64,000 nt of DNA from Auanema rhodensis (GCA_964057225.1 OZ059895.1:12400001-12464000), one strand, 5' to 3'; shown: positions 579-26,591, counted from the stretch's first letter. The notes: generated by a model not told the origin, from the sequence alone. Translations and numbers: made by a program.

Positions 579-599
579 CATTGAATATCAGATATTTTC

Positions 600-732: not shown

Positions 733-733
733 A

Positions 734-4400: not shown

Positions 4401-5211
4401 TTTCAAATTTTTTTAACGATCATACCACGTTGAAAGTACGCCATGCAGCTGATTCTCAATTTTATCTCTTCCGTAACAAATGTTTTTAATTTTACAGCAG
4501 TTTTACTTAGATAGCTCAACCCAAGACATCAAAATATCTTTAATCTTTTTTCTATATTACATTTATAAACCAGTAAATTATGAACCTTCATCTTAACTTT
4601 ACTGTTTCTATCTATTTCCTATTGAAACAAACATTGTTTAAACACTATACAACTGTGAAACCTTTTTTAATTTATTGTATTTGGAGCTCATAAGATTTGA
4701 TATCATCGAGGGATTTAGATGTAACGTAGAAAATTACATAACTAACATGAAATTGGAAAAAAAAACAATAACGAGGATAAGTATGTAAATCATTGAATAT
4801 CAGATATTTTTGCTCACGACCATACTACGTTGAAAGTACGCCATGCAGCTGATTTTCAATTTTATCTCTTCCGTAACAAATGTTTTTAATTTTCCAGCAG
4901 TTTTACTTAGATAGCTCAACCCAAGGCATCAAAATATCTTTAATCTTATTTCTATATTACATTTATAAACCAGTAGTTTATGAACCTTCATTTTAACTTT
5001 ACTGTTTCTATCTATTTCCTATTAAAACAAATGCTGTTTAAACACTATACAACTGTGAAACCTTTTTTAATTTATTGTATTTGGAGCTCATAAGATTTGA
5101 TATCATCGAGGGATTTAGATGTAACGTAGAAAATTACATAACTAACATGAAATTGGAAAAAAAAACAATAACGAAGATAAGTATGTAAATCATTGAATAT
5201 CAGATATTTTC

Positions 5212-5330
5212 GCTTACGATCATACCACGTTGAAAGTACGCCATCCCGTCCGATCTGGCAAGTCAAGCAACGTTGGGCCCGGTTAGTACTTGGATCGGAG
5301 ACGGCTTGGGAATCCCGGGTGCCGTAAGCT
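5212..5330 (+). rRNA. 5S: 5S rRNA (C9T)
   Basis: Full 119-nt copy. Confidence 0.95.
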
Positions 5331-6141
5331 TTTCAAATTTTTTTAACGATCATACCACGTTGAAAGTACGCCATGCAGCTGATTCTCAATTTTATCTCTT
5401 CCGTAACAAATGTTTTTAATTTTACAGCAGTTTTACTTAGATAGCTCAACCCAAGACATCAAAATATCTTTAATCTTTTTTCTATATTACATTTATAAAC
5501 CAGTAAATTATGAACCTTCATCTTAACTTTACTGTTTCTATCTATTTCCTATTGAAACAAACATTGTTTAAACACTATACAACTGTGAAACCTTTTTTAA
5601 TTTATTGTATTTGGAGCTCATAAGATTTGATATCATCGAGGGATTTAGATGTAACGTAGAAAATTGCATAACTAACATGAAATTAGAAAAAAAAACAATA
5701 ACGAAGATAAGTATGTAAATCATTGAATATCAGATATTTTCGCTTACGACCATACCACGTTGAAAGTACGCCATGCAGCTGATTTTCAATTTTATCTCTT
5801 CCGTAACAAATGTTTTTAATTTTCCAGCAGTTTTACTTAGATAGCTCAACCCAAGGCATCAAAATATCTTCAATCTTATTTCTATATTACATTTATAAAC
5901 CAGTAGTATATGAACCTTCATCTTAACTTTACTGTTTCTATCTATTTCCTATTAAAACAAATGCTGTTTAAACACTATACAACTGTGAAACCTTTTTTAA
6001 TTTATTGTATTTGGAGCTCATAAGATTTGATATCATCGAGGGATTTAGATGTAACGTAGAAAATTACATAACTAACATGAAATTGGAAAAAAAAACAATA
6101 ACGAAGATAAGTATGTAAATCATTGAATATCAGATATTTTC

Positions 6142-6260
6142 GCTTACGATCATACCACGTTGAAAGTACGCCATCCCGTCCGATCTGGCAAGTCAAGCAA
6201 CGTTGGGCCCGGTTAGTACTTGGATCGGAGACGGCTTGGGAATCCCGGGTGCCGTAAGCT
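6142..6260 (+). rRNA. 5S: 5S rRNA (C9T)
   Basis: Full 119-nt copy. Confidence 0.95.
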
Positions 6261-7057
6261 TTTCAAATTTTTTTAACGATCATACCACGTTGAAAGTACG
6301 CCATGCAGCTGATTCTCAATTTTATCTCTTCCGTAACAAATGTTTTTAATTTTACAGCAGTTTTACTTAGATAGCTCAACCCAAGACATCAAAATATCTT
6401 TAATCTTTTTTCTATATTACATTTATAAACCAGTAAATTATGAACCTTCATCTTAACTTTACTGTTTCTATCTATTTCCTATTGAAACAAACATTGTTTA
6501 AACACTATACAACTGTGAAACCTTTTTTAATTTATTGTATTTGGAGCTCATAAGATTTGATATCATCGAGGGATTTAGATGTAACGTAGAAAATTACATA
6601 ACTAACATGAAATTGGAAAAAAAAACAATAACGAGGATAAGTATGTAAATCATTGAATATCAGATATTTTTGCTCACGACCATACTACGTTGAAAGTACG
6701 CCATGCAGCTGATTTTCAATTTTATCTCTTCCGTAACAAATGTTTTTAATTTTCCAGCAGTTTTACTTAGATAGCTCAACCCAAGGCATCAAAATATCTT
6801 CAATCTTATTTCTATATTACATTTATAAACCAGTAGTTTATGAACTTTCATCTTAACTTTACTGTTTCTATCTATTTCCTATTGAAACAAACATTGTTTA
6901 AACACTATAAAACTGTGAAACCTTTCTTAATTTATTGTATTTGGAGCTCATAAGATTTGATATCATCGAGGGATTTAGATGTAACGTAGAAAATTACATA
7001 ACTAACATGAAATTGGAAAAAAAACAATAACGAGGATAAGTATGTAAATCATTGAAA

Positions 7058-7176
7058 GCTTACGACCATACCACGTTGAAAGTACGCCATCCCGTCCGAT
7101 CTGGCAAGTCAAGCAACGTTGGGCCCGGTTAGTACTTGGATCGGAGACGGCATCGGAATCCCGGGTGCCGTAAGCT
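7058..7176 (+). rRNA. 5S: 5S rRNA (T95A/G97C)
   Basis: Full 119-nt copy. Confidence 0.9.
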
Positions 7177-7973
7177 TTTCAAATTTTTTTAACGATCATG
7201 CCACGTTGAAAGAACGCCATGCAGCTGATTTTCAATTTTATCTCTTCCGTAACAAATGTTTTTAATTTTCCAGCAGTTTTACTCAGATAGCTCAACCCAA
7301 GGCATCAAAATATCTTCAATCTTATTTCTATACTACATTTATAAACCAGTAGTTTATGAACCTTCATCTTAAGTTTACTGTTTCTATCTATTTCCTATTG
7401 AAACAAACATTGTTTAAACACTATAAAACTGTGAAACCTTTTTTAATTTATTGTATTTGGAGCTCATAAGATTTGATATTATCGAGGGATTTAGATGTAA
7501 CGTAGAAAATTGCATAACTAACATGAAATTGGAAAAAAAAACAATAACGAGGATAAGTATGTAAATCATTGAATATCAGATATTTTCGCTTACGACCATA
7601 CTACGTTGAAAGTACGCCATGCAGCTGATTTTCAATTTTATCTCTTCCGTAACAAATGTTTTTAATTTTCCAGCAGTTTTACTTAGATAGCTCAACCCAA
7701 GGCATCAAAATATCTTCAATCTTATTTCTATATTACATTTATAAACCAGTAGTTTATGAACTTTCATCTTAACTTTACTGTTTCTATCTATTTCCTATTG
7801 AAACAAACATTGTTTAAACACTATAAAACTGTGAAACCTTTCTTAATTTATTGTATTTGGAGCTCATAAGATTTGATATCATCGAGGGATTTAGATGTAA
7901 CGTAGAAAATTACATAACTAACATGAAATTGGAAAAAAAACAATAACGAGGATAAGTATGTAAATCATTGAAA

Positions 7974-8092
7974 GCTTACGACCATACCACGTTGAAAGTA
8001 CGCCATCCCGTCCGATCTGGCAAGTCAAGCAACGTTGGGCCCGGTTAGTACTTGGATCGGAGACGGCATCGGAATCCCGGGTGCCGTAAGCT
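7974..8092 (+). rRNA. 5S: 5S rRNA (T95A/G97C)
   Basis: Full 119-nt copy. Confidence 0.9.
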
Positions 8093-8890
8093 TTTCAAAT
8101 TTTTTTAACGATCATGCCACGTTGAAAGAACGCCATGCAGCTGATTTTCAATTTTATCTCTTCCGTAACAAATGTTTTTAATTTTCCAGCAGTTTTACTC
8201 AGATAGCTCAACCCAAGGCATCAAAATATCTTCAATCTTATTTCTATACTACATTTATAAACCAGTAGTTTATGAACCTTCACCTTAAGTTTACTGTTTC
8301 TATCTATTTCCTATTGAAACAAACATTGTTTAAACACTATAAAACTGTGAAACCTTTTTTAATTTATTGTATTTGGAGCTCATAAGATTTGATATTATCG
8401 AGGGATTTAGATGTAACGTAGAAAATTGCATAACTAACATGAAATTGGAAAAAAAAACAATAACGAGGATAAGTATGTAAATCATTGAATATCAGATATT
8501 TTCGCTTACGACCATACCACGTTGAAAGTACGCCATGCAGCTGATTTTCAATTTTATCTCTTCCGTAACAAATGTTTTTAATTTTCCAGCAGTTTTACTT
8601 AGATAGCTCAACCCAAGGCATCAAAATATCTTCAATCTTATTTCTATATTACATTTATAAACCAGTAGTTTATGAACCTTCATCTTAACTTTACTGTTTC
8701 TATCTACTTCCTATTGAAACAAACGTTGTTTAAACACTATACAACTGTGAAACCTTTTTTAATTTATTGTATTTGGAGCTCATAAGATTTGATATCATCG
8801 AGGGATTTAGATGTAACGTAGAAAATTACATAACTAACATGAAATTGGAAAAAAAAACAATAACGAGGATAAGTATGTAAATCATTGAAA

Positions 8891-9009
8891 GCTTACGACC
8901 ATACCACGTTGAAAGTACGCCATCCCGTCCGATCTGGCAAGTCAAGCAACGTTGGGCCCGGTTAGTACTTGGATCGGAGACGGCATCGGAATCCCGGGTG
9001 CCGTAAGCT
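8891..9009 (+). rRNA. 5S: 5S rRNA (T95A/G97C)
   Basis: Full 119-nt copy. Confidence 0.9.
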
Positions 9010-9924
9010 TTTCAAATTTTTTTAACGATCATGCCACTTTGAAAGAACGCCATGCAGCTGATTTTCAATTTTATCTCTTCCGTAACAAATGTTTTTAATT
9101 TTCCAGCAGTTTTACTCAGATAGCTCAACCCAAGGCATCAAAATATCTTCAATCTTATTTCTATACTACATTTATAAACCAGTAGTTTATGAACCTTCAT
9201 CTTAAGTTTACTGTTTCTATCTATTTCCTATTGAAACAAACATTGTTTAAACACTATAAAACTGTGAAACCTTTTTTAATTTATTGTATTTGGAGCTCAT
9301 AAGATTTGATATTATCGAGGGATTTAGATGTAACGTAGAAAATTACATAACTAACATGAAATTGGAAAAAAAAACAATAACGAGGATAAGTATGTAAATC
9401 ATTGAATATCAGATATTTTCGCTTACGACCATACCACGTTGAAAGTACGCCATGCAGCTGATTTTCAATTTTATCTCTTCCGTAACAAATGTTTTTAATT
9501 TTCCAGCAGTTTTACTTAGATAGCTCAACCCAAGGCATCAAAATATCTTCAATCTTATTTCTATATTACATTTATAAACCAGTAGTTTATGAACCTTCAT
9601 CTTAACTTTACTGTTTCTATCTACTTCCTATTGAAACAAACGTTGTTTAAACACTATACAACTGTGAAACCTTTTTTAATTTATTGTATTTGGAGCTCAT
9701 AAGATTTGATATCATCGAGGGATTTAGATGTAACGTAGAAAATTACATAACTAACATGAAATTGGAAAAAAAAACAATAACGAGGATAAGTATGTAAATC
9801 ATTGAATATCAGATATTTTCGCTAACGACCATACCACGTTGAAAGTACGCCATGCAGCTGATTTTCAATTTTATCTCTTCCGTAACAAATGTTTTTAATT
9901 TTCCAGCAGTTTTACTTAGATAGC

Positions 9925-10264
9925 TGTTCCATAAGTGTCCTATAAAGAAGGCGGTTGACAACGTCAATCGACTTTTGGTTAATGGAATTCAATAAGAAAC
10001 TAGACCTGAACTACTTTTTGTATAAATTCAATTATATTTGTAATTAATATTTTTCTATATAAACCCCTGAGAAAGCAACTAGGTTGGCTTTCTCATAACA
10101 TGTAGTTTCATTTATTTGATTATTGTATTTTTGCTTTTATAATTGTATTTCCATATTCTGAATAAACTTCTTTTTCTCTACTCTCTGTTACTTATACAAT
10201 GGCATTCACACTATTAAAGTCCATATGGTTACCTAGCCGGAACCCTAGGAACCAATATGGAACG
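9925..10264 (+). repeat. Gypsy 5' LTR (340 bp)
   Basis: TGTTCCATA...TATGGAACG inverted termini, TATATAAA at 10056-10063 and AATAAA at 10161-10166. I count three substitutions versus the 3' LTR. Confidence 0.95.
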
Positions 10265-10283
10265 TGGAGGTTCCACCGAGATT
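10265..10283 (+). promoter_or_regulatory. Primer-binding site complementary to the tRNA-Gln 3' end
   Basis: TGGAGGTTCCACCGAGATT is the reverse complement of the animal tRNA-Gln 3' end (AATCTCGGTGGAACCT-CCA) as recalled, and lies immediately after the LTR. Confidence 0.88.
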
Positions 10284-11397
10284 CGTCTATAAGGGACGAA
10301 TCTCTATGGACCATTGCCGCTACTTTTCTCACCTTTAAATTACTTTCTCTTTCTTTGAAATCCTTTTTACTCTAAAAATTTATCTTGATTTCATGTCCAA
10401 AAATTCTAATTAAATTTTATATTTCAAACTTTCAAGTCAATTTTGTATCTAAAACAAAAACTCCAATTTAATCTAGTAATTCGAATTTATCTCTAAATAT
10501 CATTCTTCTAACATCATTTCTGATATATCTATTTGAAAAAAAAAAATGTCTTATACATATTATCTATTACAATCTATATTCCTACTTTATTCCTCTACTT
10601 TCCTGTATGTTTGAAGCATATAATGCATAAAAACTCTTTTTGGAACAAGCATATCAAAATATTTAACCACGAATAATATTAAAAACTATCAATTCATGAA
10701 ATATCTTAAAGACATTTATTCATATTGCAACACTTACCCATAAGTCATCTTGAAAACATCTTATCACAAGCTAAATTTTGAAAATATCTATTCATAAATC
10801 ATTCTGAAAACATTGATTCATAAACAAAACCACTATTTTTGATATCTAACGCATTTTTATGAGAAAGCCCCGTAAGAAACAATACCAGACATTCTCGGGA
10901 CATCGCGCGGAGGCGTACACTTTTTGATATAAGACGCGCAATCATTTGAAATTAACCCTTTTTGGTCCCATATGAGAATTAAAGAATATTTTGAAGTTGA
11001 GTGGTCCCACCTAGCAAGACCCAGGGGAACAGAAGTAACGTTAAAAGGGAACGTCTTTTGGGGGTTTGCTTAGGTAAGAGAAGTCTGGAAAAGTGGTTAT
11101 GAGAAGCCTGTGTACCTGATCTTGTCCATGACTGAAAAGGAGCAATACACAGACCACTGTCTCATATCTCATGCCTCTTCGAGAGATAAGAACTTGGTCC
11201 TTTACTAAAGGTCACACGTAGTTGCGGACTCGTGTATGAACTTGACCAGGCTATTCTCCGACTAGAGACCCGCTGCAGGCTGGCCCCCTGACAGGAACAG
11301 GAGTCGCGCATACCAACCCCATATTGTCTCTTACGTTTTGTATAATATAAGCTCAGTCTTCGTTGGTTAATAATTTCCTTCCAGGAAACCAACAAAG

Positions 11398-14300
11398 ATG
11401 GCTGACGCAGCGAATCAAAACCCTCCGCCGGGAAATATTGCCCAAAATGCTACGAATAGCGCAGAGAAAACTCAGACAGTGGAAGCAGCACTGCATAGAA
11501 ACCAAAGAAAAAGAGGACCACCGGATGCATTCCGACCAGATGCGAAATATCCGAAAACGAACGCGAAATCAAAGAAATTACCCCCTATTCCGGGTACACC
11601 GCTAACTGCTAAGAAACTTTATACTACTGCTATTAAAACTACTAGGCATGCAATTAGCTTGAATAAGAATAAAGCATCATCCAGTAAATCTACGCCCAAA
11701 CGCTCTTCTCACTCTCCAAAAACAGTTGTTAATACCGGCACTAACACTTGTCCTCCAAATCACACTTCTCCTCAACGCCTTGTTCAAACCGCAAATGCGG
11801 AAATCCTCACCTCTCCTATTCCTAGAAACTTTCCCTCTTCCACTGATCAATCTTTGCACGGGCACTCTCTGTCTCCTGTCTCTTCTTCGTCAGACAATTA
11901 CGTAAATTTGACTTCGATAGTTACAGAGCAGAGAAGTCGCCCTCAAATGGCAGAGCAGATGGAGCAAGACAATTCTCCTATTGCAAGAGCCCACAACGTT
12001 TCTATTCGCCATCACAAACCTACGCTTTATGATGGATCGGTTCCATTCAACCTCTACATGCAAAGACTAGAAGGATATTTCGATGCCCTTCAAGTCCCTA
12101 TTGCCGAGAGACTTTCCCATCTCTATCTACTTCTCGGAACGGATAGAGCCGCTGAAGCTCTTCGAACTATACCAGCAGAAGATTTACGCCAGGGATGGAA
12201 CCACGTCAAACGCATACTATCGGAGAAATTACAACCTCAAGAAAAGAGAGATGCAGCATTCACAAAACTCACTCATTTGAAACAAGGAGAGCACGAAACG
12301 GTACAAAATTTCGCTCAACGCTGCAGAAACCTTGCCTACGAATCATGCAACATGGACTCGACAGCCGATGAAAGAATACTACGAGTTTCATTCTTAGGAG
12401 GACTACGAAAGACTTTAAGAACACATGTCAATAACCGCAGCCCTATCACCTTTGATGCAGCCGTGACTATTGCCGAAACTGTGGAAGCTGACGAGGATCC
12501 TTCGCTCTTGGTCAACAACTTGATTAAAGACGTGGAACAACTAGAGATTAATAACGGTCTCATAAACCACATGAGAGCATCACAACAGGAGAAAATCTAT
12601 TACGGATCACAAACACACCAATCAAGAACATTCTATGGAAATCAATCAAGACCACAACACCCACAAGAGCAATGGAATCAAAGAAGAGGAGGATACCGCT
12701 CACCAAGATACCAAGAGGATCGACAAAATAACCGTCACAACTTCAGACAGGATAACAGAAACAATGGATATCAACGAGGATACAACAATTATCGTAGCCC
12801 CCAACGGTACGATAGATACAATGATCGATACAACAGCAGAGGAAACGATCGATATGATAGCAGAAGGAATGATCGACAGGAGCACAGAGGAAACGACCGA
12901 TACAACCGCGGAAACTGTCCTGATCGCGGATTTCAACAACGAAATCGCAGCACTTCATATGGACCACATAACAGGCACAGAGATCGCACAAGAAGCCCCA
13001 GCGTCCGTTTTCACGTTAACAAAGTAGAAAAGGAAACAGTCAAAACAAAGAAGACACTTCCGTTCATACCGCTATTCTTATCCGTCATCGCCCTATCTAT
13101 GATACCTTGCCAGGCAGATAACACCTATCAACTCTGCATTGGCAAACGAGGAGGCATTTTCCTCGAACCACCTCGCCCAACCACCTGCTCAGACTATGCA
13201 CACAAGGACGGAGTCGAGATAAAAACAGTGGAACTATTCGCAGAAAATATGAATTACAAGGAATGGGAAGCATGGAAATGCGCCAAGGAAATCTATAAAA
13301 CGTGCGCCCACGACTTATTCTTCGTCAGGGAAAATAACGTTACATTACTCCGAATAGAACCAGCCACTCCACAAGAATGCCAAACAGCCTTTCAAGAAAG
13401 ACGACACATGGATAACGACTTCAATCGCGAAGCACCAGGACTATTCAAAGCCCCTATGCCATCTAATACACAATCAAAATCGTTTTGGGCATCCTCTTGC
13501 ACAACCAAGTCAAGATTCACCTTAGAAAGAGGAATAATGACTAGCCTACACGATGACACTATAATCTCCGACTTATTCATCAACACTGAAGGATGCACTA
13601 AGCAACAAGGAGTATGCAACACCACCAACGCAGTTATCACATGGATCCCACCCAATGATCATCGAAATTGCGACTACACGACATTAGGGAAATTCGAAGC
13701 ACTAATCAACAATGATACTGTATTAATCTCGGAAATACAAGGAGCATTCATTCTCAAAAACAACACGCCAGACCCTACAGCTACAAGATGTATGAATACA
13801 AGCATCTACTCAACTGATAGTGGTACGTACATTTCCATCAAGGACTTAAAAACACACCGACGTCAAAAGAGGATGGCACTCCAAGAATACCCTACGAGAT
13901 TCTTCAATATCACTATCTACAAATCACTTCGCCTCACAGACAGTTCTACAGGTATACTACCTATGTACCAGACATATCGAAATAGGAAAAGACTGGACAA
14001 CGCTTATAACCTTATGGAATATCTCAAGACATCTAGCGTACACATAGGTTTCATCAAATTCCTACAACTAGATTCATCAAAACTGAAGAACCGACTCTTA
14101 TGGCACAACTACACTGACATCAACATGGTTATCCTGCACACACTTGCAGAAGCTGAGATTCGACTTTCTACAAAAATTGCCATCGAACACCTACTGCCAT
14201 CAGAGATCACGGCAAAACTCAGCAAGCAAATCACTATCAGCGACTTTGCCACACGTCTACTCAACTACGAAGGCGATTATCTCGACCGAGCAAGACAAAT

Positions 14301-16248
14301 AGCCATTGAAATAGCTCACACACCTACCACTCTGGCAACAGGAGAGACTATTCCATCAATGGAGGACTATCTGTACCAACTGTACCCACCCAGGATGACA
14401 AAACTGCCTAGATCACGCACTGACACACAGTTCTACACCCAGATGGATCAAATACAGGAGTTTCTTGATTATCTAGAGCAAAACAATCGTCTAACTCGGA
14501 TATCAAAAAAACAAAGAGAGACAGAAAATAAGAAATGGGCAGATCTCACAAAACAGGCAAATTCGTCAGCAATCGTCTTTCCCAACTATACCCTCATCTT
14601 CAACGGACACACACAAAATTATGGGTTGCCCAAAAATCAACCTACAATCAGACCTATCACGGATGAAGACAGCAAACTATTTCAACAAGCATATCTTCAG
14701 CTCATTGAGTCACCTGGTGCTAGCCCCACAACCACCACTACTACAACCACCACAACCACTACATCGACTACCACAACAACTGTCCCGACAACTACTACTC
14801 ATCGGACGTCTCCACCTCAACCTACAACTACACCAAGGAGATATTACTATTACCAGAGTACAACAACTCCAGTAACTCCACCACCACGTCCTCTCACCAC
14901 CACATCCCGCAGGGAATCTACTAGGACACTTCCAACAACTCGGACTACTACAAAGCGAGCAACAACAACCCAACCGATTGAGGAAATCAAATCTCACACT
15001 GGATCACAAGCACACCTCAATTTCCTACGAACACGAGCAGATATCATTCAAAAATACGACGATCAACTACGCCAACAAGATACAAGGTCCCACCTCCAAT
15101 ACTCTACGTCAAAACTAGAGGAGGAAATCTTACAATCTTTCCAAATAACAAAGAAAAACGTATGCAGAATGCAAAATAAGCAGCTACTTACCTGGTGGGC
15201 AATCCTGCAGATTAATCCGACTATAGGAATTCGCACTATGCTTCGTCGACAGGATATTTCAGCAAAGTTTGTTGGAGAACATCTTATTTACGTCATGCCA
15301 TGCACCCCTGTACAAGTAACACGTGTATACTCGGATCACAAACGAGACGATAAATGTTACCTGGAGACACCGGTAGACACGGAACATCACGGAAAACTCT
15401 TCATCACACCAGGATCAAGAGATTTAACACCATTTGCCCACATCATAGCATGCGATATGGCTACATCAGATCCCTACAGAGAAAACAATCAATGGATGAA
15501 AGATAATTCAACATTGAATGTGACTAACTTCTCATTTTCGGATGAACTCACATCTGTAAAAATTGATCACATTAAGTTTAACAATTCCAACATATTTTCA
15601 AACCTCACGGAGTCAACATTTCCAATGGCACTGGCTATTTCCTACGGCTCTAGCCTAGCATCTTTACAAGCAACTATGCCAGGAAAATTGAAACCAGTCT
15701 TCAAACATTCTGGACTATCCAATCTGAATCCAATAGGAATTATAGGAGGAACAGTTGGAACGACATTAATGATAGCAGATAACATATCAAACAACGCGGA
15801 GAAACAAATCACAAATTTCTTTGGATACATAGGAGAGTCAATTACAGCATGGATACTAAGGACACTAGCTATTATTGGAGCAATCATCGTCACAATAGGA
15901 CTCATAACTGTTACCATTTGGGCATTAAAAATATATGCATGTACCACAAGGATACCAATCAATCAAATTACATTCAACGAACAAGACGAAGAACCAAGAG
16001 GAGAGGACAAACAATTCGAATTAAAACCACTAGTCACTTCTCAGCAAGAGAAATTATATACAAGAACCTCTCGATATGATCCTGACGCCCCACTATCAGA
16101 TAATGACTTTTTCGCCTATCTACCACGGTACGCTATGAAAGAATCAAGGATTAACTACATCGGAGGATCACGACTACCTTTCGTACCTCTCTCCATTCAC
16201 AATCAGATCTTTACTGCTTTATGGGACACAGGAGCTTCTATATCATAA
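11398..16248 (+). CDS. gag-env: Gag - internal signal peptide - class III (gB-like) fusion glycoprotein - TM - N-terminal part of aspartic protease (1616 aa)
   Basis: Gag CA motifs (YDGS..., LKQGEHETVQNFAQR, FLGGL); hydrophobic signal LPFIPLFLSVIALSMIPCQA; Cys-rich ectodomain; furin site RRQKR; Thr-rich mucin tract; gB-like CRMQN..W..INP..SAKFVGE..C..V..CY..PV; TM; ends LWDTGASIS*. Confidence 0.85.
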   Translation: MADAANQNPPPGNIAQNATNSAEKTQTVEAALHRNQRKRGPPDAFRPDAKYPKTNAKSKKLPPIPGTPLTAKKLYTTAIKTTRHAISLNKNKASSSKSTPKRSSHSPKTVVNTGTNTCPPNHTSPQRLVQTANAEILTSPIPRNFPSSTDQSLHGHSLSPVSSSSDNYVNLTSIVTEQRSRPQMAEQMEQDNSPIARAHNVSIRHHKPTLYDGSVPFNLYMQRLEGYFDALQVPIAERLSHLYLLLGTDRAAEALRTIPAEDLRQGWNHVKRILSEKLQPQEKRDAAFTKLTHLKQGEHETVQNFAQRCRNLAYESCNMDSTADERILRVSFLGGLRKTLRTHVNNRSPITFDAAVTIAETVEADEDPSLLVNNLIKDVEQLEINNGLINHMRASQQEKIYYGSQTHQSRTFYGNQSRPQHPQEQWNQRRGGYRSPRYQEDRQNNRHNFRQDNRNNGYQRGYNNYRSPQRYDRYNDRYNSRGNDRYDSRRNDRQEHRGNDRYNRGNCPDRGFQQRNRSTSYGPHNRHRDRTRSPSVRFHVNKVEKETVKTKKTLPFIPLFLSVIALSMIPCQADNTYQLCIGKRGGIFLEPPRPTTCSDYAHKDGVEIKTVELFAENMNYKEWEAWKCAKEIYKTCAHDLFFVRENNVTLLRIEPATPQECQTAFQERRHMDNDFNREAPGLFKAPMPSNTQSKSFWASSCTTKSRFTLERGIMTSLHDDTIISDLFINTEGCTKQQGVCNTTNAVITWIPPNDHRNCDYTTLGKFEALINNDTVLISEIQGAFILKNNTPDPTATRCMNTSIYSTDSGTYISIKDLKTHRRQKRMALQEYPTRFFNITIYKSLRLTDSSTGILPMYQTYRNRKRLDNAYNLMEYLKTSSVHIGFIKFLQLDSSKLKNRLLWHNYTDINMVILHTLAEAEIRLSTKIAIEHLLPSEITAKLSKQITISDFATRLLNYEGDYLDRARQIAIEIAHTPTTLATGETIPSMEDYLYQLYPPRMTKLPRSRTDTQFYTQMDQIQEFLDYLEQNNRLTRISKKQRETENKKWADLTKQANSSAIVFPNYTLIFNGHTQNYGLPKNQPTIRPITDEDSKLFQQAYLQLIESPGASPTTTTTTTTTTTTSTTTTTVPTTTTHRTSPPQPTTTPRRYYYYQSTTTPVTPPPRPLTTTSRRESTRTLPTTRTTTKRATTTQPIEEIKSHTGSQAHLNFLRTRADIIQKYDDQLRQQDTRSHLQYSTSKLEEEILQSFQITKKNVCRMQNKQLLTWWAILQINPTIGIRTMLRRQDISAKFVGEHLIYVMPCTPVQVTRVYSDHKRDDKCYLETPVDTEHHGKLFITPGSRDLTPFAHIIACDMATSDPYRENNQWMKDNSTLNVTNFSFSDELTSVKIDHIKFNNSNIFSNLTESTFPMALAISYGSSLASLQATMPGKLKPVFKHSGLSNLNPIGIIGGTVGTTLMIADNISNNAEKQITNFFGYIGESITAWILRTLAIIGAIIVTIGLITVTIWALKIYACTTRIPINQITFNEQDEEPRGEDKQFELKPLVTSQQEKLYTRTSRYDPDAPLSDNDFFAYLPRYAMKESRINYIGGSRLPFVPLSIHNQIFTALWDTGASIS

Positions 16249-19200
16249 ATGAAGGAAAGTACATTTCAACAACTACCGGCAGCAACAATGGTTATGGAAA
16301 AAACAACAGCCATTGTAGCAAACAAATCACGATTTTCTTTCCTGGGCTACACAAGAATCCCAATTATTATCGGGAAGACAGAAATCGAGCACAAAGTACT
16401 GATTTCTGCCAACAACCACTGCCCAGCACCAATATTATTAGGAATAGACTTCATAGAAGCTCTCAACAAAATAGGAATAAATACATCTTTACGACCACTA
16501 CAAAATTCACTACTAATTGGAGACACAATAGTACCTTTAGCACAAGACTACGCGCCATGGACTGAGAACCACACGATAGCACACGTCGTAAGCCTGGAAA
16601 CCAAACAGTTCTACCCAAGAGAAACCAGATCGCTTACATTGGAAGTAGACGATCCCGCCTCTTACGAACAAGCTTTCATTAGAAGCTCACAGCGGACAGG
16701 AAAAATGAGTTTCGCCCCTACTACTTTCACCCCAACGGGATATGGAGTTCAGATATTTACGAAACATTTACAAGATATCGACGAAATACTGAACGCATCA
16801 GCAGAGCTAGGATTAAAAATCAAGCTTAAGAAATGTACCTTTGGACAACAAGAAGTCAAATTCCTAGGATTCATTGTTGGACACGAAGGAATAAAACCAG
16901 ACCCTCAGAAAGTAAAAGCAATCCAAGATTATCCAAGACCGAAATCAATAACAGGAGTTCGAGCATTTATGGGAGTTGTGAACTACTTTCGCAGATTTAT
17001 TAGAAATGCCGCAGGCATTGCGTCACCACTTTATGAGCTCACGAAAAAGGATACAGCTTTCAAATGGGGAGATGCAGAAGAACAAGCATTTCAACAACTT
17101 AAACAGATACTCTGTCAAGCTCCTGTACTACAAGCACCTATAGCAAAACGACCTTACGTCATTGAAAGCGATGGAAGTATAATTGCAGTTGGCGCAGTAC
17201 TATTACAGGCTAAAGACGACAAAGAACCACTTCACCCAATTGCATTTGCCAGCCGAAAACTGAACAAAGCCGAACGGAATTACCCGCCAATTGAAATCGA
17301 AGCCCTAGCACTCACTTTCGCAGTACATCAATTTCGGACTTACATACTAGGCACACCAATAAGAATCATTACCGATCACAGGCCTCTTACTAGCCTCATG
17401 ACAAGAAAAGATCTCATTGGCAGGCTAGCAAAATTTCAAATCGTATTACAAGAATACGACATCGAGATAGTGTATCGCCCAGGACGTCTTAACAGCGTCT
17501 GTGATGCACTTTCACGATATTTTGAAGACGAAGTCAACGAAGCCAAGGAAAGAAAGAAGAAACCAAAAGAAACTCCTACACACAAAAGCTCGACTATTTC
17601 AACTATTACGGACCTTCGGACCATTCAAGGCAATACAGAATGGATCATGGAAACAAAAGAAAAGATTCGGAACAAAACAGCAGGAAGGCAACTAATGGAT
17701 CGATATATCGTTGTGAACGACGCTCTGTATGCAAAACCCAAAACAGCTTTACAAACTCCGCGAGCCATTCTACCAAACGATCCAGCAATCACAATACCAA
17801 TTATAGAAAAATTTCATAAAGACCCAATTCTCGGAGCACATCTTGGAATCAATAAGACTCAAGACTCCATTTTGCGACGGTACACTTGGACAGGAATACA
17901 GGATGATATCACAAGATATGTGAACAGATGTCTCGACTGTGCAAAGAGGAAAAATAACCCACATGAAGCCACAGTTGAACCAATGAGAAACTTCCCAACA
18001 GTGACACATCCATGGGAACGAGTTCACATGGACATACTAAGACCATTACCTAGAACTGCAAAGGATAATAGATACATTTTATCTATACAGGACGCATTTT
18101 CCAAATGGATTATAGCGATACCATTAATTCGTCAGACATCAGAAGAAATAGTATCAGCTATTATGACACACTTATTCTATGTCTTCGGACCCCCAAAGAA
18201 AATCATCACAGACAATGGATCAAACTTTGTCTCACACGAATTCAAAAGCATGTGCGATAATCTTGGATCGGAACATCACACAACTATGCCATACTACAAA
18301 AACGCAAATGGTCAAGTGGAACGGCTACACAGAACACTGGAAGAAGCATTAACTTCCTACGTTAATGACGATCAAGACAATTGGGATATTATTCTACCAA
18401 AAATTGTTTTTACGATGAATCGACTACCAAACGCTACTACTCGCACACCACCCTACGACTGTCTGTTTGGACAAACAGCTCGGTTACCAATAGATAAGGA
18501 CTTAGAAACTCCAGGAGCCACAATCAAGAACGCCCCGGACTTACACGAGAAGATTCATGAAAGGATAGAGTTGAATAATGAAAGAATGAAGAAGAAATAC
18601 GACGAAAATCACAGGACGCAGGAAAGAGAGATCTTCGTGGAAAATAGAGCACTCGTCAAGCGAGCAAAGCCAGCAAATAAATTACAAACAACAAGCGATG
18701 GACCATATATAATCAAGGAAATAAAAGGAAATAACGTAATATTAGCAGATAGCGAAGGGAATACGATTATAGCTCACAAGAATAATATAAGATACTTTCC
18801 ACCCGACGATAACAACGTCGAAGAAAGCGAGCACAACAGAAACGACTCCGCACCCGCCATTTATAGCGACGGCTCACAGCAGGATACGGAAAATACGCGC
18901 GCTAAAAATAGCACGCCCACCGCAACATCAATCTCTGATTCAGAAAGCGACAACGAGGACGAATTCTACGAACAAAGCCGACCTTCAATAACACCACAAG
19001 AAACAATAGCACCACAGGAAATTACGCAGGAAACACAACAGGACAATTATCAACCAGAAACCGGACCGAATACGGCAGACAAGTCAGCTACGGACAAGGA
19101 CGAAAACAACTTATTTCAACAACTTGTCGATAAAATTGGAGAAGAAACAAGGCAAGAGCTCTATGAAGAAAGACGTAAAGAGATACCCACAACCAAAAGA

Positions 19201-19428
19201 TGGAGCTCAGCCCTCAAGTTGGCACTTGGAATAGAAGACAAAAATCCTATAACCGCTCCAAAACCATTCCACGTACCAATAAGGTACAACAGCGTGATAC
19301 CCACCTTAGAGTCTAAAAACAGGCTCACACGCTCTCAGATACCTGATGCTCATTTCAATTCTCCAAAAACACCGGTTGTACGAAAGAAACGACCTTCAAC
19401 AGTGATTGGAGCAACAACAACCATTTAA
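16249..19428 (+). CDS. pol: Pol remainder: C-terminal part of protease, truncated RT (no YxDD), RNase H, integrase (1059 aa; same frame as the upstream ORF)
   Basis: PR ILLGIDF; RT C-terminal KKCTFGQQEVKFLG; RNase H ESDGS / EIEALA / TDHRPL / DALSR; IN H-H-C-C, HMD, TDNG, NGQVER, GPY. Confidence 0.92.
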   Translation: MKESTFQQLPAATMVMEKTTAIVANKSRFSFLGYTRIPIIIGKTEIEHKVLISANNHCPAPILLGIDFIEALNKIGINTSLRPLQNSLLIGDTIVPLAQDYAPWTENHTIAHVVSLETKQFYPRETRSLTLEVDDPASYEQAFIRSSQRTGKMSFAPTTFTPTGYGVQIFTKHLQDIDEILNASAELGLKIKLKKCTFGQQEVKFLGFIVGHEGIKPDPQKVKAIQDYPRPKSITGVRAFMGVVNYFRRFIRNAAGIASPLYELTKKDTAFKWGDAEEQAFQQLKQILCQAPVLQAPIAKRPYVIESDGSIIAVGAVLLQAKDDKEPLHPIAFASRKLNKAERNYPPIEIEALALTFAVHQFRTYILGTPIRIITDHRPLTSLMTRKDLIGRLAKFQIVLQEYDIEIVYRPGRLNSVCDALSRYFEDEVNEAKERKKKPKETPTHKSSTISTITDLRTIQGNTEWIMETKEKIRNKTAGRQLMDRYIVVNDALYAKPKTALQTPRAILPNDPAITIPIIEKFHKDPILGAHLGINKTQDSILRRYTWTGIQDDITRYVNRCLDCAKRKNNPHEATVEPMRNFPTVTHPWERVHMDILRPLPRTAKDNRYILSIQDAFSKWIIAIPLIRQTSEEIVSAIMTHLFYVFGPPKKIITDNGSNFVSHEFKSMCDNLGSEHHTTMPYYKNANGQVERLHRTLEEALTSYVNDDQDNWDIILPKIVFTMNRLPNATTRTPPYDCLFGQTARLPIDKDLETPGATIKNAPDLHEKIHERIELNNERMKKKYDENHRTQEREIFVENRALVKRAKPANKLQTTSDGPYIIKEIKGNNVILADSEGNTIIAHKNNIRYFPPDDNNVEESEHNRNDSAPAIYSDGSQQDTENTRAKNSTPTATSISDSESDNEDEFYEQSRPSITPQETIAPQEITQETQQDNYQPETGPNTADKSATDKDENNLFQQLVDKIGEETRQELYEERRKEIPTTKRWSSALKLALGIEDKNPITAPKPFHVPIRYNSVIPTLESKNRLTRSQIPDAHFNSPKTPVVRKKRPSTVIGATTTI

Positions 19429-19638
19429 TCAAAAATAGAAACTTTTCGGGAAAATAACTTTATTCATTAATTTTTTTATAATAATTCATTCTATCTGCTA
19501 CCCAAACAACAAAAACAATGTTTTCCCCAATCATCAATCTTAATATCTATGTATCACAAAATATATACTTACCTATTTTTTTCACCCTATATAAGCTCAA
19601 AATTCACCTCAAGCAGAAAAACTCCCAGCACCACAAGA

Positions 19639-20274
19639 ATGGCACTCGTCTTCCCTCCACCAGCCTGCGAGACACCTATCGCGATGATCAAGGAAAAGTG
19701 GATCAAGATTCATTCGCTCCAGATAGAACTACAACAACTGGAGACAACAAACAACAGGACTAAAAAGATAAAAATCCTCCAATCATTTTCGGAGAATTTA
19801 GCCAGAGTTACTCTATTAATAGAGACTCTGGAAAGGTTACAATGTTCATGTAACAAGGATGAAGAAGAGATGGCCAAAATGGCGCAAAACTGGTCCGAGG
19901 CCACTGCCCGCACCAAGGCCACCATCAACAAACTACGCGAAGATCTAGGCTATCCAGCCTCCGAAAATGTAGCTAGCGCGGATCTCATCCCAAGATGGGC
20001 CGCGGAAGAGATCCACAAGAGCTGGACAGAAGAAAGTATGATGGAATCGACCAACCAGTCGATTAGGAAGGCGGGAGACCTGATCAGCCAGGCCTTAAGG
20101 ATACTAATGGCGACGCGCGCCACCACTCCGGACCAGAAAAGAAAGAAAATGATGATAGCAGGCCAGGCGACGGAACTGCTAACAGACGTCAGCCTGTTCC
20201 ACATATGGACGGTCGCCGACCGGCAACCCGCGACCGACTTCCAGCTGGGACAAATCGAGGAGGAAGAAGGATAA
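19639..20274 (+). CDS. Orphan accessory ORF of the Gypsy element, predicted helical/coiled-coil (211 aa from ATG 19639; frame open from 19549)
   Basis: GC-richer open frame between two AT-rich tracts inside the element, with heptad-like helices. TATATAA at 19588-19594 lies upstream. Confidence 0.65.
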   Translation: MALVFPPPACETPIAMIKEKWIKIHSLQIELQQLETTNNRTKKIKILQSFSENLARVTLLIETLERLQCSCNKDEEEMAKMAQNWSEATARTKATINKLREDLGYPASENVASADLIPRWAAEEIHKSWTEESMMESTNQSIRKAGDLISQALRILMATRATTPDQKRKKMMIAGQATELLTDVSLFHIWTVADRQPATDFQLGQIEEEEG

Positions 20275-20501
20275 CAGCTGCACGAGGTGAATTCATAGTT
20301 TTTCTTCTCTCCTTTTCTTTTCTTTTTCTTTTTATATTGTTTTCATTTTTTTTATATTATTCCTATTACACTACTATTTCTATTCTAGTATTCCAATTCT
20401 AATTCATTTATATATATATATATATTTTTCTCTTTTGTTTCTTTTCCTAAAAAGGTCTAATTTCTTATAGCTGAGGTCAGCTACTTTTTCAATATAAGGC
20501 A

Positions 20502-20841
20502 TGTTCCATAAGTGTCCTATAAAGAAGGCGGTTGACAACGTCAACCGACTTTTGGTTAATGGAATTCAATAAGAAACTAGACCTGAACTACTTTTTGTAT
20601 AAATTCAATTATATTTGTAATTAATATTTTTCTATATAAACCCCTGAGAAAGCAACTAGGTTGGCTTTCTCATAACATGTAGTTTCATTTATTTGATTAT
20701 TGTATTTTTGCTTTTATAATTGTATTTCCATATTCTGAATAAACTTCTTTTTCTCTACTCTCTGTTACTTTTACAATGACATTCACACTATTAAAGTCCA
20801 TATGGTTACCTAGCCGGAACCCTAGGAACCAATATGGAACG
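20502..20841 (+). repeat. Gypsy 3' LTR (340 bp)
   Basis: Direct repeat of 9925-10264, followed by TAGC and resumption of the 5S spacer. Confidence 0.95.
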
Positions 20842-21127
20842 TAGCTCAACCCAAGGCATCAAAATATCTTCAATCTTATTTCTATATTACATTTATAAAC
20901 CAGTAGTTTATGAACCTTCATCTTAACTTTACTGTTTCTATCTACTTCCTATTGAAACAAACGTTGTTTAAACACTATACAACTGTGAAACCTTTTTTAA
21001 TTTATTGTATTTGGAGCTCATAAGATTTGATATCATCGAGGGATTTAGATGTAACGTAGAAAATTACATAACTAACATAAAATTGGAAAAAAAACAATAA
21101 CGAGGATAAGTATGTAAATCATTGAAA

Positions 21128-21246
21128 GCTTACGACCATACCACGTTGAAAGTACGCCATCCCGTCCGATCTGGCAAGTCAAGCAACGTTGGGCCCGGTT
21201 AGTACTTGGATCGGAGACGGCTTGGGAATCCCGGGTGCCGTAAGCT
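21128..21246 (+). rRNA. 5S: 5S rRNA
   Basis: Full 119-nt copy. Confidence 0.95.
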
Positions 21247-21644
21247 TTTCAATTTTTTTTAACGATCATACCACGTTGAAAGTACGCCATGCAGCTGATT
21301 CTCAATTTTATCTCTTCCGTAACAAATGTTTTTAATTTTCCAGCAGTTTTACTTAGATAGCTCGACCCAAGGCATCAAAATATCTTTAATCTTATTTCTA
21401 TATTACATTTATAAACCAGTAGTTTATGAACCTTCATCTTAACTTTACTGTTTCTATCTATTTCCTATTAAAACAAATGTTGTTTAAACACTATACAACT
21501 GTGAAACCTTTTTTAATTTATTGTATTTGGAGCTCATAAGATTTGATATCATCGAGGGATTTAGATGTAACGTAGAAAATTACATAACTAACATGAAATT
21601 GGAAAAAAAAACAATAACGAGAATAAGTATGTAAATCATTGAAA

Positions 21645-21763
21645 GCTTACGATCATACCACGTTGAAAGTACGCCATCCCGTCCGATCTGGCAAGTCAAG
21701 CAACTTTGGGCCCGGTTAGTACTTGGATCGGAGACGGCTTGGGAATCCCGGGTGCCGTAAGCT
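21645..21763 (+). rRNA. 5S: 5S rRNA (C9T, G61T)
   Basis: Full 119-nt copy. Confidence 0.9.
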
Positions 21764-22561
21764 TTTCAAATTTATTTAACGATCATACCACGTTGAAAGT
21801 ACGCCATGCAGCTGATTCTCAATTTTATCTCTTCCGTAACAAATGTTTTTAATTTTCCAGCAGTTTTACTTAGATAGCTCAACCCAAGACATCAAAATAT
21901 CTTTAATCTTTTTTCTATATTACATTTATAAACCAGTAGTTTATAAACCTTCATCTTAACTTTACTGTTTCTATCTATTTCCTATTGAAACAAACATTGT
22001 TTAAACACTATACAACTGTGAAACCTTTTTTAATTTATTGTATTTGGAGCTCATAAGATTTGATATCATCGAGGGATTTAGATGTAACGTAGAAAATTAC
22101 ATAACTAACATGAAATTGGAAAAAAAAACAATAACGAAGATAAGTATGTAAATCATTGAATATCAGATATTTTCGCTTACGACCATACCACGTTGAAAGT
22201 ACGCCATGCAGCTGATTTTCAATTTTATCTCTTCCGTAACAAATGTTTTTAATTTTCCAGCAGTTTTACTTAGATAGCTCAACCCAAGGCATCAAAATAT
22301 CTTCAATCTTATTTCTATATTACATTTATAAACCAGTAGTTTATGAACCTTCATCTTAACTGTACTGTTTCTATCTACTTCCTATTGAAACAAACGTTGT
22401 TTAAACACTATACAACTGTGAAACCTTTTTCAATTTTTTGTATTTGGAGCTCATAAGATTTGATATCATCGAGGGATTTAGATGTAACGTAGAAAATTAC
22501 ATAACTAACATGAAATTGGAAAAAAAAACAATAACGAGAATAAGTATGTAAATCATTGAAA

Positions 22562-22680
22562 GCTTACGACCATACCACGTTGAAAGTACGCCATCCCGTC
22601 CGATCTGGCAAGTCAAGCAACGTTGGGCCCGGTTAGTACTTGGATCGGAGACGGCTTGGGAATCCCGGGTGCCGTAAGCT
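22562..22680 (+). rRNA. 5S: 5S rRNA
   Basis: Full 119-nt copy. Confidence 0.95.
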
Positions 22681-23078
22681 TTTCAAATTTATTTAACGAT
22701 CATACCACGTTGAAAGTACGCCATGCAGCTGATTCTCAATTTTATCTCTTCCGTAACAAATGTTTTTAATTTTCCAGCAGTTTTACTTAGATAGCTCGAC
22801 CCAAGGCATCAAAATATCTTTAATCTTATTTCTATATTACATTTATAAACCAGTAGTTTATGAACCTTCATCTTAACTTTACTGTTTCTATCTATTTCCT
22901 ATTAAAACAAATGTTGTTTAAACACTATACAACTGTGAAACCTTTTTTAATTTATTGTATTTGGAGCTCATAAGATTTGATATCATCGAGGGATTTAGAT
23001 GTAACGTAGAAAATTACATAACTAACATGAAATTGGAAAAAAAAACAATAACGAGAATAAGTATGTAAATCATTGAAA

Positions 23079-23197
23079 GCTTACGATCATACCACGTTGA
23101 AAGTACGCCATCCCGTCCGATCTGGCAAGTCAAGCAACTTTGGGCCCGGTTAGTACTTGGATCGGAGACGGCTTGGGAATCCCGGGTGCCGTAAGCT
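23079..23197 (+). rRNA. 5S: 5S rRNA (C9T, G61T)
   Basis: Full 119-nt copy. Confidence 0.9.
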
Positions 23198-23995
23198 TTT
23201 CAAATTTATTTAACGATCATACCACGTTGAAAGTACGCCATGCAGCTGATTCTCAATTTTATCTCTTCCGTAACAAATGTTTTTAATTTTCCAGCAGTTT
23301 TACTTAGATAGCTCAACCCAAGACATCAAAATATCTTTAATCTTTTTTCTATATTACATTTATAAACCAGTAGTTTATAAACCTTCATCTTAACTTTACT
23401 GTTTCTATCTATTTCCTATTGAAACAAACATTGTTTAAACACTATACAACTGTGAAACCTTTTTTAATTTATTGTATTTGGAGCTCATAAGATTTGATAT
23501 CATTGAGGGATTTAGATGTAACGTAGAAAATTACATAACTAACATGAAATTGGAAAAAAAAACAATAACGAAGATAAGTATGTAAATCATTGAATATCAG
23601 ATATTTTCGCTTACGACCATACCACGTTGAAAGTACGCCATGCAGCTGATTTTCAATTTTATCTCTTCCGTAACAAATGTTTTTAATTTTCCAGCAGTTT
23701 TACTTAGATAGCTCAACCCAAGGCATCAAAATATCTTCAATCTTATTTCTATATTACATTTATAAACCAGTAGTTTATGAACCTTCATCTTAACTGTACT
23801 GTTTCTATCTACTTCCTATTGAAACAAACGTTGTTTAAACACTATACAACTGTGAAACCTTTTTCAATTTTTTGTATTTGGAGCTCATAAGATTTGATAT
23901 CATCGAGGGATTTAGATGTAACGTAGAAAATTACATAACTAACATGAAATTGGAAAAAAAAACAATAACGAGAATAAGTATGTAAATCATTGAAA

Positions 23996-24114
23996 GCTTA
24001 CGACCATACCACGTTGAAAGTACGCCATCCCGTCCGATCTGGCAAGTCAAGCAACGTTGGGCCCGGTTAGTACTTGGATCGGAGACGGCTTGGGAATCCC
24101 GGGTGCCGTAAGCT
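23996..24114 (+). rRNA. 5S: 5S rRNA
   Basis: Full 119-nt copy. Confidence 0.95.
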
Positions 24115-24924
24115 TTTCAAATTTATTTAACGATCATACCACGTTGAAAGTACGCCATGCAGCTGATTCTCAATTTTATCTCTTCCGTAACAAATGTTTT
24201 TAATTTTCCAGCAGTTTTACTTAGATAGCTCAACCCAAGACATCAAAATATCTTTAATCTTTTTTCTATATTACATTTATAAACCAGTAGTTTATAAACC
24301 TTCATCTTAATTTTACTGTTTCTATCTATTTCCTATTGAAACAAACATTGTTTAAACACTATACAACTGTGAAACCTTTTTTAATTTATTGTATTTGGAG
24401 CTCATAAGATTTGATATCATTGAGGGATTTAGATGTAACGTAGAAAATTACATAACTAACATGAAATTGAAAAAAAAAACAATAACGAGGATAAGTATGT
24501 AAATCATTGAATATCAGATATTTTTGCTCACGACCATACCACGTTGAAAGTACGCCATGCAGCTGATTTTCAATTTTATCTCTTCCGTAACAAATGTTTT
24601 TAATTTTCCAGCAGTTTTACTTAGATTGCTCAACCCAAGGCATCAAAATATCTTCAATCTTATTTCTATATAACATTTATAAATCAGTAGTTTATGAACC
24701 TTCATCTTAACTTTACTGTTTCTATCTATTTCCTATTGAAACAAACGTTGTTCAAACACTAAACAACTGTGAAACCTTTTTTAATTTATTGTATTTGGAG
24801 CTCATAAGATTTGATATCATCGAGGAATTCAGATGTAACGTAGAAAATTACATAACTAACATGAAATTGGAAAAAAAACAATAACGAGGATAAGTATGTA
24901 AATCATTGAATATCAGGTATTTTC

Positions 24925-25043
24925 GCTTACGACCATACCACGTTGAAAGTACGCCATCCCGTCCGATCTGGCAAGTCAAGCAACGTTGGGCCCGGTTAGT
25001 ACTTGGATCGGAGACGGCTTGGGAATCCCGGGTGCCGTAAGCT
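24925..25043 (+). rRNA. 5S: 5S rRNA
   Basis: Full 119-nt copy. Confidence 0.95.
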
Positions 25044-26223
25044 TTTCAAATTTTTTTAACGATCATACCACGTTGAAAGTACGTCATGCAGCTGATTTTC
25101 AATTTTATCTCTTCCGTAACAAATGTTTTCAATTTTCCAGCAGTTTTACTTAGATAGCTCAACCGAAGGCAGCGAACTATCTCTAATCTTATTCCTATAT
25201 TACAGTTATAAACCAGTAGTTTATGAACCTTCATCTTAACTTTACTGTTTCTATCTATTTCCTATTGAAACAAACATTGTTTAAACACAATACAACTGTG
25301 AAACCTTTTTTAATTTATTGTATTTGGATCTCATAAGATTTGATATCATCGAGGGATTTAAATGTAACGTAGAAAATTACATAACTAACATGAAATTGGA
25401 AAAAAAACTTTTACTTAGATAGCTCAACCCAAGGCATCAAAATATCTTCAATCTTATTTCTATATTACAGTTATAAACCAGTAGTTTATGAACCTTCATC
25501 TTAACTTTACTGTTTCTATCTATTTCCTATTGAAACAAACATTGTTTAAACACTATACAACTGTGAAACCTTTTTTAATTTATTGTATTTGGATCTCATA
25601 AGATTTGATATCATCGAGGGATTTAGATGTAACGTAGAAAATTACATAACTAACACGAAATTGGAAAAAAAACAATAACGAGGATAAGTATGTAAATCAT
25701 TGAATATCAGATTTTTTCGCTTACGACCATACCACGTTTAAAGTACGCCATGCAGCTGATTTTCAATTTAATCTCTTCCGTAACAAATGTTTTTAATTTT
25801 CCAGCAGTTTTACTTAGATAGCTCAACCCAAGGCATCAAAATATCTTCAATCTTATTTCTATATTACAGTTATAAACCAGTAGTTTATGAACCTTCATCT
25901 TAACTTTAACCTTCATCTTAACTAACAAATGTTTTTAATTTTCCAGCAGTTTTACTTAGATAGCTCAACCCAAGGCATCAAAATATCTTCAATCTTATTT
26001 CTATATTACAGTTATAAACCAGTAGTTTATGAACCTTCATCTTAACTTTACTGTTTCTATCTATTTCCTATTGAAACAAACATTGTTTAAACACTATACA
26101 ACTGTGAAACCTTTTTTAATTTATTGTATTTGGATCTCATAAGATTTGATATCATCGAGGGATTCAGATGTAACGTAGAAAATTACATAACTAACATGAA
26201 ATTGGAAAAAAAACAATAACGAG

Positions 26224-26290
26224 TGTCGCGATAAGCGAGTGAGTTTGTATAATTTTTTTATCTTCAACAATTGTTTTATTTGTTTCTCCT

Positions 26291-26338
<48 letters not shown>

Positions 26339-26588
26339 TTCTTCTTTCTTCTAACTTCCTAAGTAATTTTTATCCATACCACATGTTGTGTTATACATGT
26401 GGCATGACTAACTCTTTGTTTCAGGCTGACGACCGCCCACGAGAAGAGATCAGTCTTACTTTTTCAACGTTCGCAGTCAGTGATTTTATTCCGTGCTTGT
26501 CTTGTTAATTCATCAATAAACCCTTTTCTACATATTCGCTTTGTGTTTTACTTCCAACCATACTATACACTTGTGGTATAACGCCACA
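26224..26588 (+). repeat. BEL 5' LTR (365 bp) with (TC)21 microsatellite
   Basis: TGTCGCG...CGCCACA. Appears identical to the 3' LTR except for 8 extra TC units; AATAAA at 26515-26520. Confidence 0.95.
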
Positions 26589-26591
26589 AAT

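Follow-up and report, generated by a model that had tools for sequence, protein, structure and literature searches.

What does it mean for a retroelement to encode a viral fusogen in frame between Gag and protease, and how would such a product be made? The question is raised by a 64,000-nucleotide stretch of the Auanema rhodensis genome (GCA_964057225.1, OZ059895.1:12400001-12464000; 'the window' below is this whole stretch, and positions are counted from its first letter), which contains a Ty3/gypsy long terminal repeat (LTR) element at 9925-20841. A single frame runs from an ATG at 11398 to a stop at 19428, with 1616 codons leading to a TAA at 16246-16248 and a further 1059 codons following in the same frame, and its 2676 aa comprise, by Pfam and hydropathy, Gag, a signal, an envelope-type glycoprotein (Env), a transmembrane (TM) segment, protease, and then reverse transcriptase (RT), RNase H (RH) and integrase (IN). 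We consider it quite probable that this is a defective copy of an element with Gag, a predicted glycoprotein B (gB)-like Env and Pol in one frame, and that in intact relatives the product is a polyprotein that crosses the membrane twice and is likely cut by host and element proteases. The parts of the frame, and an open reading frame (ORF) behind it, are as follows.

11398-13053, + strand: Gag (aa 1-552), with a capsid domain at ~aa 205-372 and then an R/N/Q/Y-rich region (Pfam)
13015-13026, + strand: candidate protease site before the signal, aa 540-543 (motif; putative cleavage)
13054-13119, + strand: internal signal sequence, hydrophobic core aa 553-571 (hydropathy 1.98 over 19 aa)
13120-15861, + strand: predicted class III (gB-like) Env ectodomain, 14 Cys, 14 sequons (predicted fold and Pfam)
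13861-13872, + strand: furin-type site RQKR, aa 822-825 (motif; putative cleavage)
13873-15075, + strand: ~410-aa Env insert, a predicted helical domain (aa 842-1056) and then a Thr/Ser/Pro-rich mucin-like stretch (prediction and comparison)
15862-15918, + strand: Env TM anchor, aa 1489-1507 (hydropathy 2.5)
15919-16161, + strand: predicted cytosolic tail, with a candidate protease site at its end, aa 1585-1588 (motif)
16177-16464, + strand: aspartic protease with DTG at 16225, cut by the stop at 16246-16248 (Pfam aa 1594-1689)
16758/16759, + strand: point at which ~274 codons, with the RT core, are absent in frame (alignment to the nearest relative)
16759-17457, + strand: RT remainder and RNase H (Pfam RVT_1 aa 1789-1827, RT_RNaseH aa 1890-2020)
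17797-19428, + strand: integrase (H2C2, core) and a long acidic C-terminal tail (Pfam Integrase_H2C2 aa 2134-2186, rve 2203-2300)
19639-20274, + strand: extra 211-aa ORF 3' of pol (reading frame; covered by contigs of other runs)

The first-pass annotation had described one Gag-signal-Env-TM-protease-Pol frame with an ectodomain of about 900 aa, a tail of about 70 aa and a protease DTG at 16225, and this is borne out by the frame, by the Pfam order and by the hydropathy profile, in which two segments only pass the cut-off (aa 553-571 and aa 1489-1507). The ectodomain measures 913 aa and the Env tail ~85 aa, with the DTG found at aa 1610 (nt 16225). Gag matches Retrotrans_gag at aa 248-337 (E 1.5e-5), and a motif scan of it found neither a CCHC finger nor a late motif. 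For the extra 211-aa ORF, searches at E 0.01 gave no homologue within the range of lengths that they covered, and the best Atlas score is 0.79.

The frame had also been taken to be broken only by one TAA, and in this respect a second lesion was overlooked: relative to the nearest relative, ~274 RT residues are lost in frame at 16758/16759. The RT match covers profile positions 165-205 of 205 only (i.e. the last 41) and there is no YxDD motif in the RT remainder, whereas the nearest relatives have a full RT with YLDD. The TAA itself is within the protease domain, 7 codons past the catalytic Asp. This copy is dead, with a protease interrupted by the stop and no RT core. Eleven of 14 listed sequencing runs (three studies) contain the stretch, none of them recorded as RNA, and the best may be the window's own source; contigs of five DNA runs (X1, X2, X3, X7 and X8) were compared with the window. 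At the stop codon all of the depth differs from the window in four of four runs, and at 16758/16759 the contigs of four of four runs stop, with loose ends on both sides. Among the runs compared, stop and gap are thus unique to this copy, or else to its assembly. An in-frame TAA near the start of Pol could be a programmed read-through stop that tunes the ratio of Gag-Env to Pol, but we give this next to no credence, since the codon is inside the protease, is contradicted by all of the depth in those runs, and is open in the relatives.

Private lesions also mean that assembly or copy is imperfect, and a one-off chimera, nested insertion or misassembly that placed env between gag and pol is the outcome that the first-pass annotation had named as fatal to its reading. 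However, both junctions are bridged by contigs of other runs: Gag-signal-Env by independent-run contigs of X1 (12982-13952) and X2 (12880-13574), and Env-TM-protease by an X2 contig (14848-16758) with 7 differences and no gaps. Two other arrangements appear in the runs. One is a joint in X2 of 12865 to 20004 that skips 7138 bases, at a depth of 226 versus ~480 over gag and 200-300 over env/pol, and is likely a non-autonomous derivative that keeps most of gag and is without env and pol. The other is a second subfamily, ~90% identical and of lower depth in the runs compared (12219-12909, 16218-16960).

Relatives also speak against a chimera. There are 246 Env relatives at E 0.001 among 50%-identity representatives, of which 150 were listed, and 152 proteins were examined for order. 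Among the matches listed, a single protein holds Gag-Env-Pol in 21 of these 152 cases; Env precedes Pol in another 23 and follows it in 2, while 19 have Gag and Env, and 87 have Env alone; the order probes were gypsy-derived, hence BEL/Pao proteins are mostly counted in this last class. In 13 of the listed relatives Gag, Env, RT, RH and IN are all called in one protein. Pfam analysis of 19 of the 20 listed Env matches of at least 2000 aa (P0099 was omitted for its size) identified 13 as gypsy-type with Env before Pol, five as BEL/Pao with Env last, and one as Env alone. The eight nearest Pol relatives are all rhabditid nematode proteins (Auanema, Caenorhabditis, Diploscapter) with Env Pfam matches and Env before Pol; none lacks Env or has it after integrase, so the pattern that would count against a family trait did not occur. 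The RT end and RNase H are 63% identical to P0002, an Auanema sp. element, and a tree of this region (27 rows, no outgroup, 6 of 24 branches strongly supported, and used for nearest neighbours only) places an Auanema sp. element as sister (100/98), inside a nine-row group whose named rows are Caenorhabditis. The contigs of several relatives are so short that they could hold little intron sequence besides the coding region (for example, 2486 aa on 8161 bp and 2797 aa on 9331 bp). Chary and Hayashi (eLife 2026, PMC13524379) also report the layout, in 36 nematode elements. These comparisons support Gag-Env-Pol in a single frame as a family trait, and a chimera or misassembly has almost no chance of being the explanation.

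The Env family is not confined to gypsy elements. In the BEL/Pao polyproteins P0054, P0061, P0065, P0107 and P0122 a gB-like Env of the same family is present after the integrase, and Env is thus shared between the gypsy and BEL/Pao groups.

What kind of protein is this Env? It had been annotated as a viral fusogen, and the evidence now points to a specific class. By Pfam the ectodomain matches PF00606 (E 4.6e-7), and a weak Glycoprotein_B match at aa 1231-1311 (E 2e-6) is below the curated cut-off. An AlphaFold model of Env, built from 59 sequences, has a mean predicted local distance difference test score (pLDDT) of 68 and a predicted template-modelling score (pTM) of 0.44. It matches herpes gB in Foldseek (E 1e-10), and prefusion herpes simplex virus 2 (HSV-2) gB aligns to it over 365 residues at Z 13.2 and a root-mean-square deviation (rmsd) of 5.4 Å. 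A fold search by another method than Foldseek is led by gB, Chandipura G and Bourbon virus glycoprotein, and its top nine rows are class III fusogens or their domains, save one nanobody-sized gB domain; the best models in the viral fold search are a Beihai rhabdo-like glycoprotein and, second, a Nyavirus glycoprotein. The gB-like fold begins at model residues 1-2, i.e. directly past the signal. These predictions support the segment between Gag and protease being a class III viral fusogen with a gB-like fold, in common with herpesvirus gB and the rhabdo-like, nyami- and chuvirus G proteins. Identity to these is 9-17%, and the large insert and the retroelement polyprotein setting belong to this Env.

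The insert follows the furin-type site and is 410 aa long, versus a median of 49 aa in 101 relatives. Its helical part was matched only by P0002, P0005 and P0006 (Auanema sp.) among 159 others, and has a pLDDT of 72-87 over most of its length in the whole-Env model; folded alone the helical insert has a pLDDT of 41, and the fold search on the whole Env model scarcely probed it. An R-x-K/R-R site is found in the ectodomain of 14 of the 21 rows (this element and relatives) used for topology.

With hydrophobic segments on both sides of Env, the expected arrangement is Gag in the cytosol, Env in the lumen and Pol again in the cytosol. Topology statistics were collected from 21 proteins (this one and 20 relatives), two further ones, in which the alignment of Env began past its start, being dropped. 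A hydrophobic core is present at the signal position in all 21 rows scored. The residues in front of the signal carry more net positive charge than those behind it (p 0.003), and at the TM the difference runs the other way, with more net positive charge behind than in front (p 0.0006); the 21 rows are related, so that both p values overstate the significance. In 16 of the 21 proteins the ectodomain has a higher sequon density than Pol. Charge and sequon patterns across these proteins fit the cytosol-lumen-cytosol topology that had been proposed.

The proposal had gone further, however, and envisaged Gag held at the membrane by an uncleaved signal anchor and Pol packaged as a lasting tail of Env, at a strict 1:1:1 ratio. 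Several features suit this. There is no stop or frame change at either junction, hydrophobic segments are present at both borders, and a Met just before the signal is found in only five of 39 relatives and is absent in this copy. The counter-evidence is a short motif, [VI]N[ASTYKN][VIL], picked by eye and scored in the 45 aa before the signal or the protease. It is present before the signal in 18 of 39 proteins, as compared to 24 of 735 background windows; in the rows unseen when the motif was chosen it is present in 8 of 18, with a shuffle maximum of 4. Before the protease it is found in 12 of 39 (shuffle mean 1.0, maximum 5). The 2676-aa frame contains three copies, at aa 372, 540 and 1585, each of them at a domain border. 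These sites are likely cut sites of the element's own protease, judging from their position and by analogy with gypsy cleavage sites; a literature search for a gypsy cleavage-site consensus gave nothing specific. A likely protease motif just before the signal weakens lasting tethering of Gag, and the start of the gB-like fold directly past the signal suits a freed N-terminus. The single frame and the signal at the border stand from the original proposal, and its permanent anchoring is, we think, improbable.

A second alternative is that the single frame reflects genomic layout only, with spliced messages giving extra Gag or an Env-less Gag-Pol, as in the cerv message of Cer1, an element with an open gag-pol frame and yet a spliced mRNA (PMC10309623). 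When scanned strictly, 12400-13120 contains no GT[AG]AG donor and 15900-16230 contains no TTT[CT]AG-type acceptor, although weaker sites are possible. We give splicing perhaps a one-in-several chance, and note that it is compatible with the two-pass polyprotein that we prefer.

For intact members of the family we propose the following route. Gag would be made in the cytosol, and the internal signal would direct Env into the lumen of the endoplasmic reticulum (ER), where the TM would halt transfer and leave Pol back in the cytosol. Signal peptidase and furin would process Env, and the element protease would cut [VI]N-x-[VIL] at aa 372 (the capsid end), aa 540 (before the signal) and aa 1585 (before the protease). 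With cuts at these sites it is only the precursors of Gag and Pol that would be bound to the membrane. Assembly of particles would take place on Env-bearing membrane, with Pol carried in on the Env tail. Of three motifs tested, the late-domain-like P[TS]AP occurs in four of 36 Env tails (P0002, P0008, P0023 and P0079; shuffle mean 0.13); there is no late motif in the Env tail of this copy, and PPxY (0 of 36) and YPxL (2 of 36) show no enrichment in Env tails. More speculatively, this two-pass precursor route could be new for retroelements, with budding driven by the tail, release by the protease, and the insert after the furin site serving as the receptor-binding part of a stand-alone gB; we offer this tentatively, as a possibility that we would not expect to hold in full.

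Several observations weigh against the proposed polyprotein and its processing. The sequon enrichment is modest, with 1.04 per 100 aa in the ectodomain versus 0.77 in Pol and 0.68 in Gag. The cleavage motif was chosen by eye; 21 of 39 relatives have no copy of it before the signal and 27 of 39 have none before the protease, and after RNase H its count of 5 in 23 is equal to the shuffle maximum. A signal-peptidase pattern found in 37 of 39 proteins was dropped as evidence, as it is also present in 86% of shuffles. The Env model has a pTM of only 0.44, with 273 of 907 residues below pLDDT 50, and its TM-scores in Foldseek range only from 0.17 to 0.28. Among the relatives are some eukaryotic gene models, in which exons have possibly been joined. 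Finally, retroelements do not usually make Gag and Pol in equal amounts.

How does the element compare with known systems? The first-pass annotation knew of no described family with this layout, and its novelty does not hold up, as the order is already published for nematodes, bryozoans and flatworms: Chary and Hayashi report that errantiviruses of Nematoda, Bryozoa and Platyhelminthes have only gB-type ENV, in the order GAG-ENV-POL (PMC13524379). A literature search on gag-env-pol retrotransposon order gave no further source, and the same paper credits Sacco et al. 2022 (J Gen Virol 103:1739) with nematode elements in which ENV and POL are flipped. Ty3/gypsy Pol, the gene order, a gB-type Env between signal and TM, and LTRs are all shared with the GAG-ENV-POL elements of Chary and Hayashi; by ORF order, by the gB-type ectodomain between hydrophobic segments and by a Pol that is near those of nematode elements, the A. 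rhodensis element fits among these errantiviruses. In their supplement eight of 36 nematode rows are of the tRNA-Gln type, and the genome table includes ENV-POL matches in two Auanema assemblies. This copy differs in that its Env has the ~410-aa insert, in that no Auanema is among the 36 nematode rows, and in that it is not intact, falling outside the definition used for the curated list of PMC13524379 (full-length RT and integrase, continuous ORF). The words 'polyprotein', 'fused', 'frameshift' and 'splic' are absent from the main text of that paper, so processing is undiscussed there.

For the present element the gene order and the class of Env are secure, and the processing is what we infer; the candidate protease-site motif and the large lineage-specific Env insert are new here. 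The nematode endogenous retroviruses (NERV) of Sacco and colleagues are reported to have one continuous gag-env-pro-pol ORF, a nyamivirus-like Env and an extra small ORF. All three features have counterparts here, in the continuous frame, the Nyavirus-like fold match and the extra ORF. In the belpaoviruses Atlas, Cer7, Cer13 and Tas, Env is also part of a single polyprotein with Gag and Pol, and the Env of Tas is gB-like (PMC9094657). These have a BEL/Pao Pol with Env last, and the Env of Atlas is class II (PMC9094657), such that the gypsy element differs in Pol and in Env position. Belpaoviridae are marked by a Pao-type Pol with Env after the integrase, and here Env precedes Pol; the Pao-type domains Peptidase_A17, DUF1759 and DUF5641 were absent from the frame by Pfam. 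The candidate protease sites, the late-domain motifs of some Env tails and the large Env insert offer leads on two questions: how a gB-like fusogen can do without partner glycoproteins, and how enveloped retroelements pass from one nematode cell to another.

The ends of the element place it in the Metaviridae, with two LTRs, a target-site duplication and a tRNA primer site, as does its Pol, with the order PR-RT-RH-IN, a gypsy-type RT_RNaseH, and H2C2/rve.

9921-9924, + strand: left target-site duplication TAGC, 4 bp, the 4 bases being repeated after the 3' LTR
9925-10264, + strand: 5' LTR, 340 bp, starts TG and ends CG, 3 mismatches versus the 3' LTR
10265-10282, + strand: primer-binding site, tRNA-Gln type, adjoining the 5' LTR
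20502-20841, + strand: 3' LTR, pairs with the 5' LTR at 99.1%
20842-20845, + strand: right target-site duplication TAGC, copy of the left TAGC

The element is young, with 340-bp LTRs that are 99.1% identical (3 mismatches). LTRs usually end in CA, and both of these end in CG (positions 10264 and 20841). The first 12 nt of the primer site are the reverse complement of the tRNA-Gln primer-binding site listed in PMC13524379 for Clat_errantivirus_4 and Ctro_errantivirus_1, i.e. the 12-nt site is identical to that of these two Caenorhabditis elements. The empty insertion site is present 83 times in the 5S ribosomal DNA (rDNA) array of the window, and the joined empty site is seen in other sequencing runs. 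As a dead copy the element is a poor model, and its value is that it marks a young multi-copy family inside the 5S rDNA array. A literature search for nematode LTR elements targeted to 5S yielded nothing specific.

That array makes up the window outside of its two LTR elements (1-9924, 20842-26223 and 35997-64000), in units of 400-530 bp, and contains 54 full 5S copies and 86 fragments with the 5' head only. No match to a spliced-leader motif was found in the 5S array. The gypsy insertion point is 104 bp past the start of a 5S head fragment. The other LTR element (26224-35996) is of the BEL/Pao type, with Peptidase_A17, DUF1759 and DUF5641 in one uninterrupted 2642-aa frame, LTRs that differ by only 16 gap letters, and a 5-bp target duplication. 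Its Env, which is phlebovirus G2-like, is after the integrase, as in Atlas and Cer7, and a 173-codon Cys/His-rich frame is present at 35097-35618. The window thus has two unrelated enveloped elements, one gypsy and one BEL/Pao, 5.4 kb apart.

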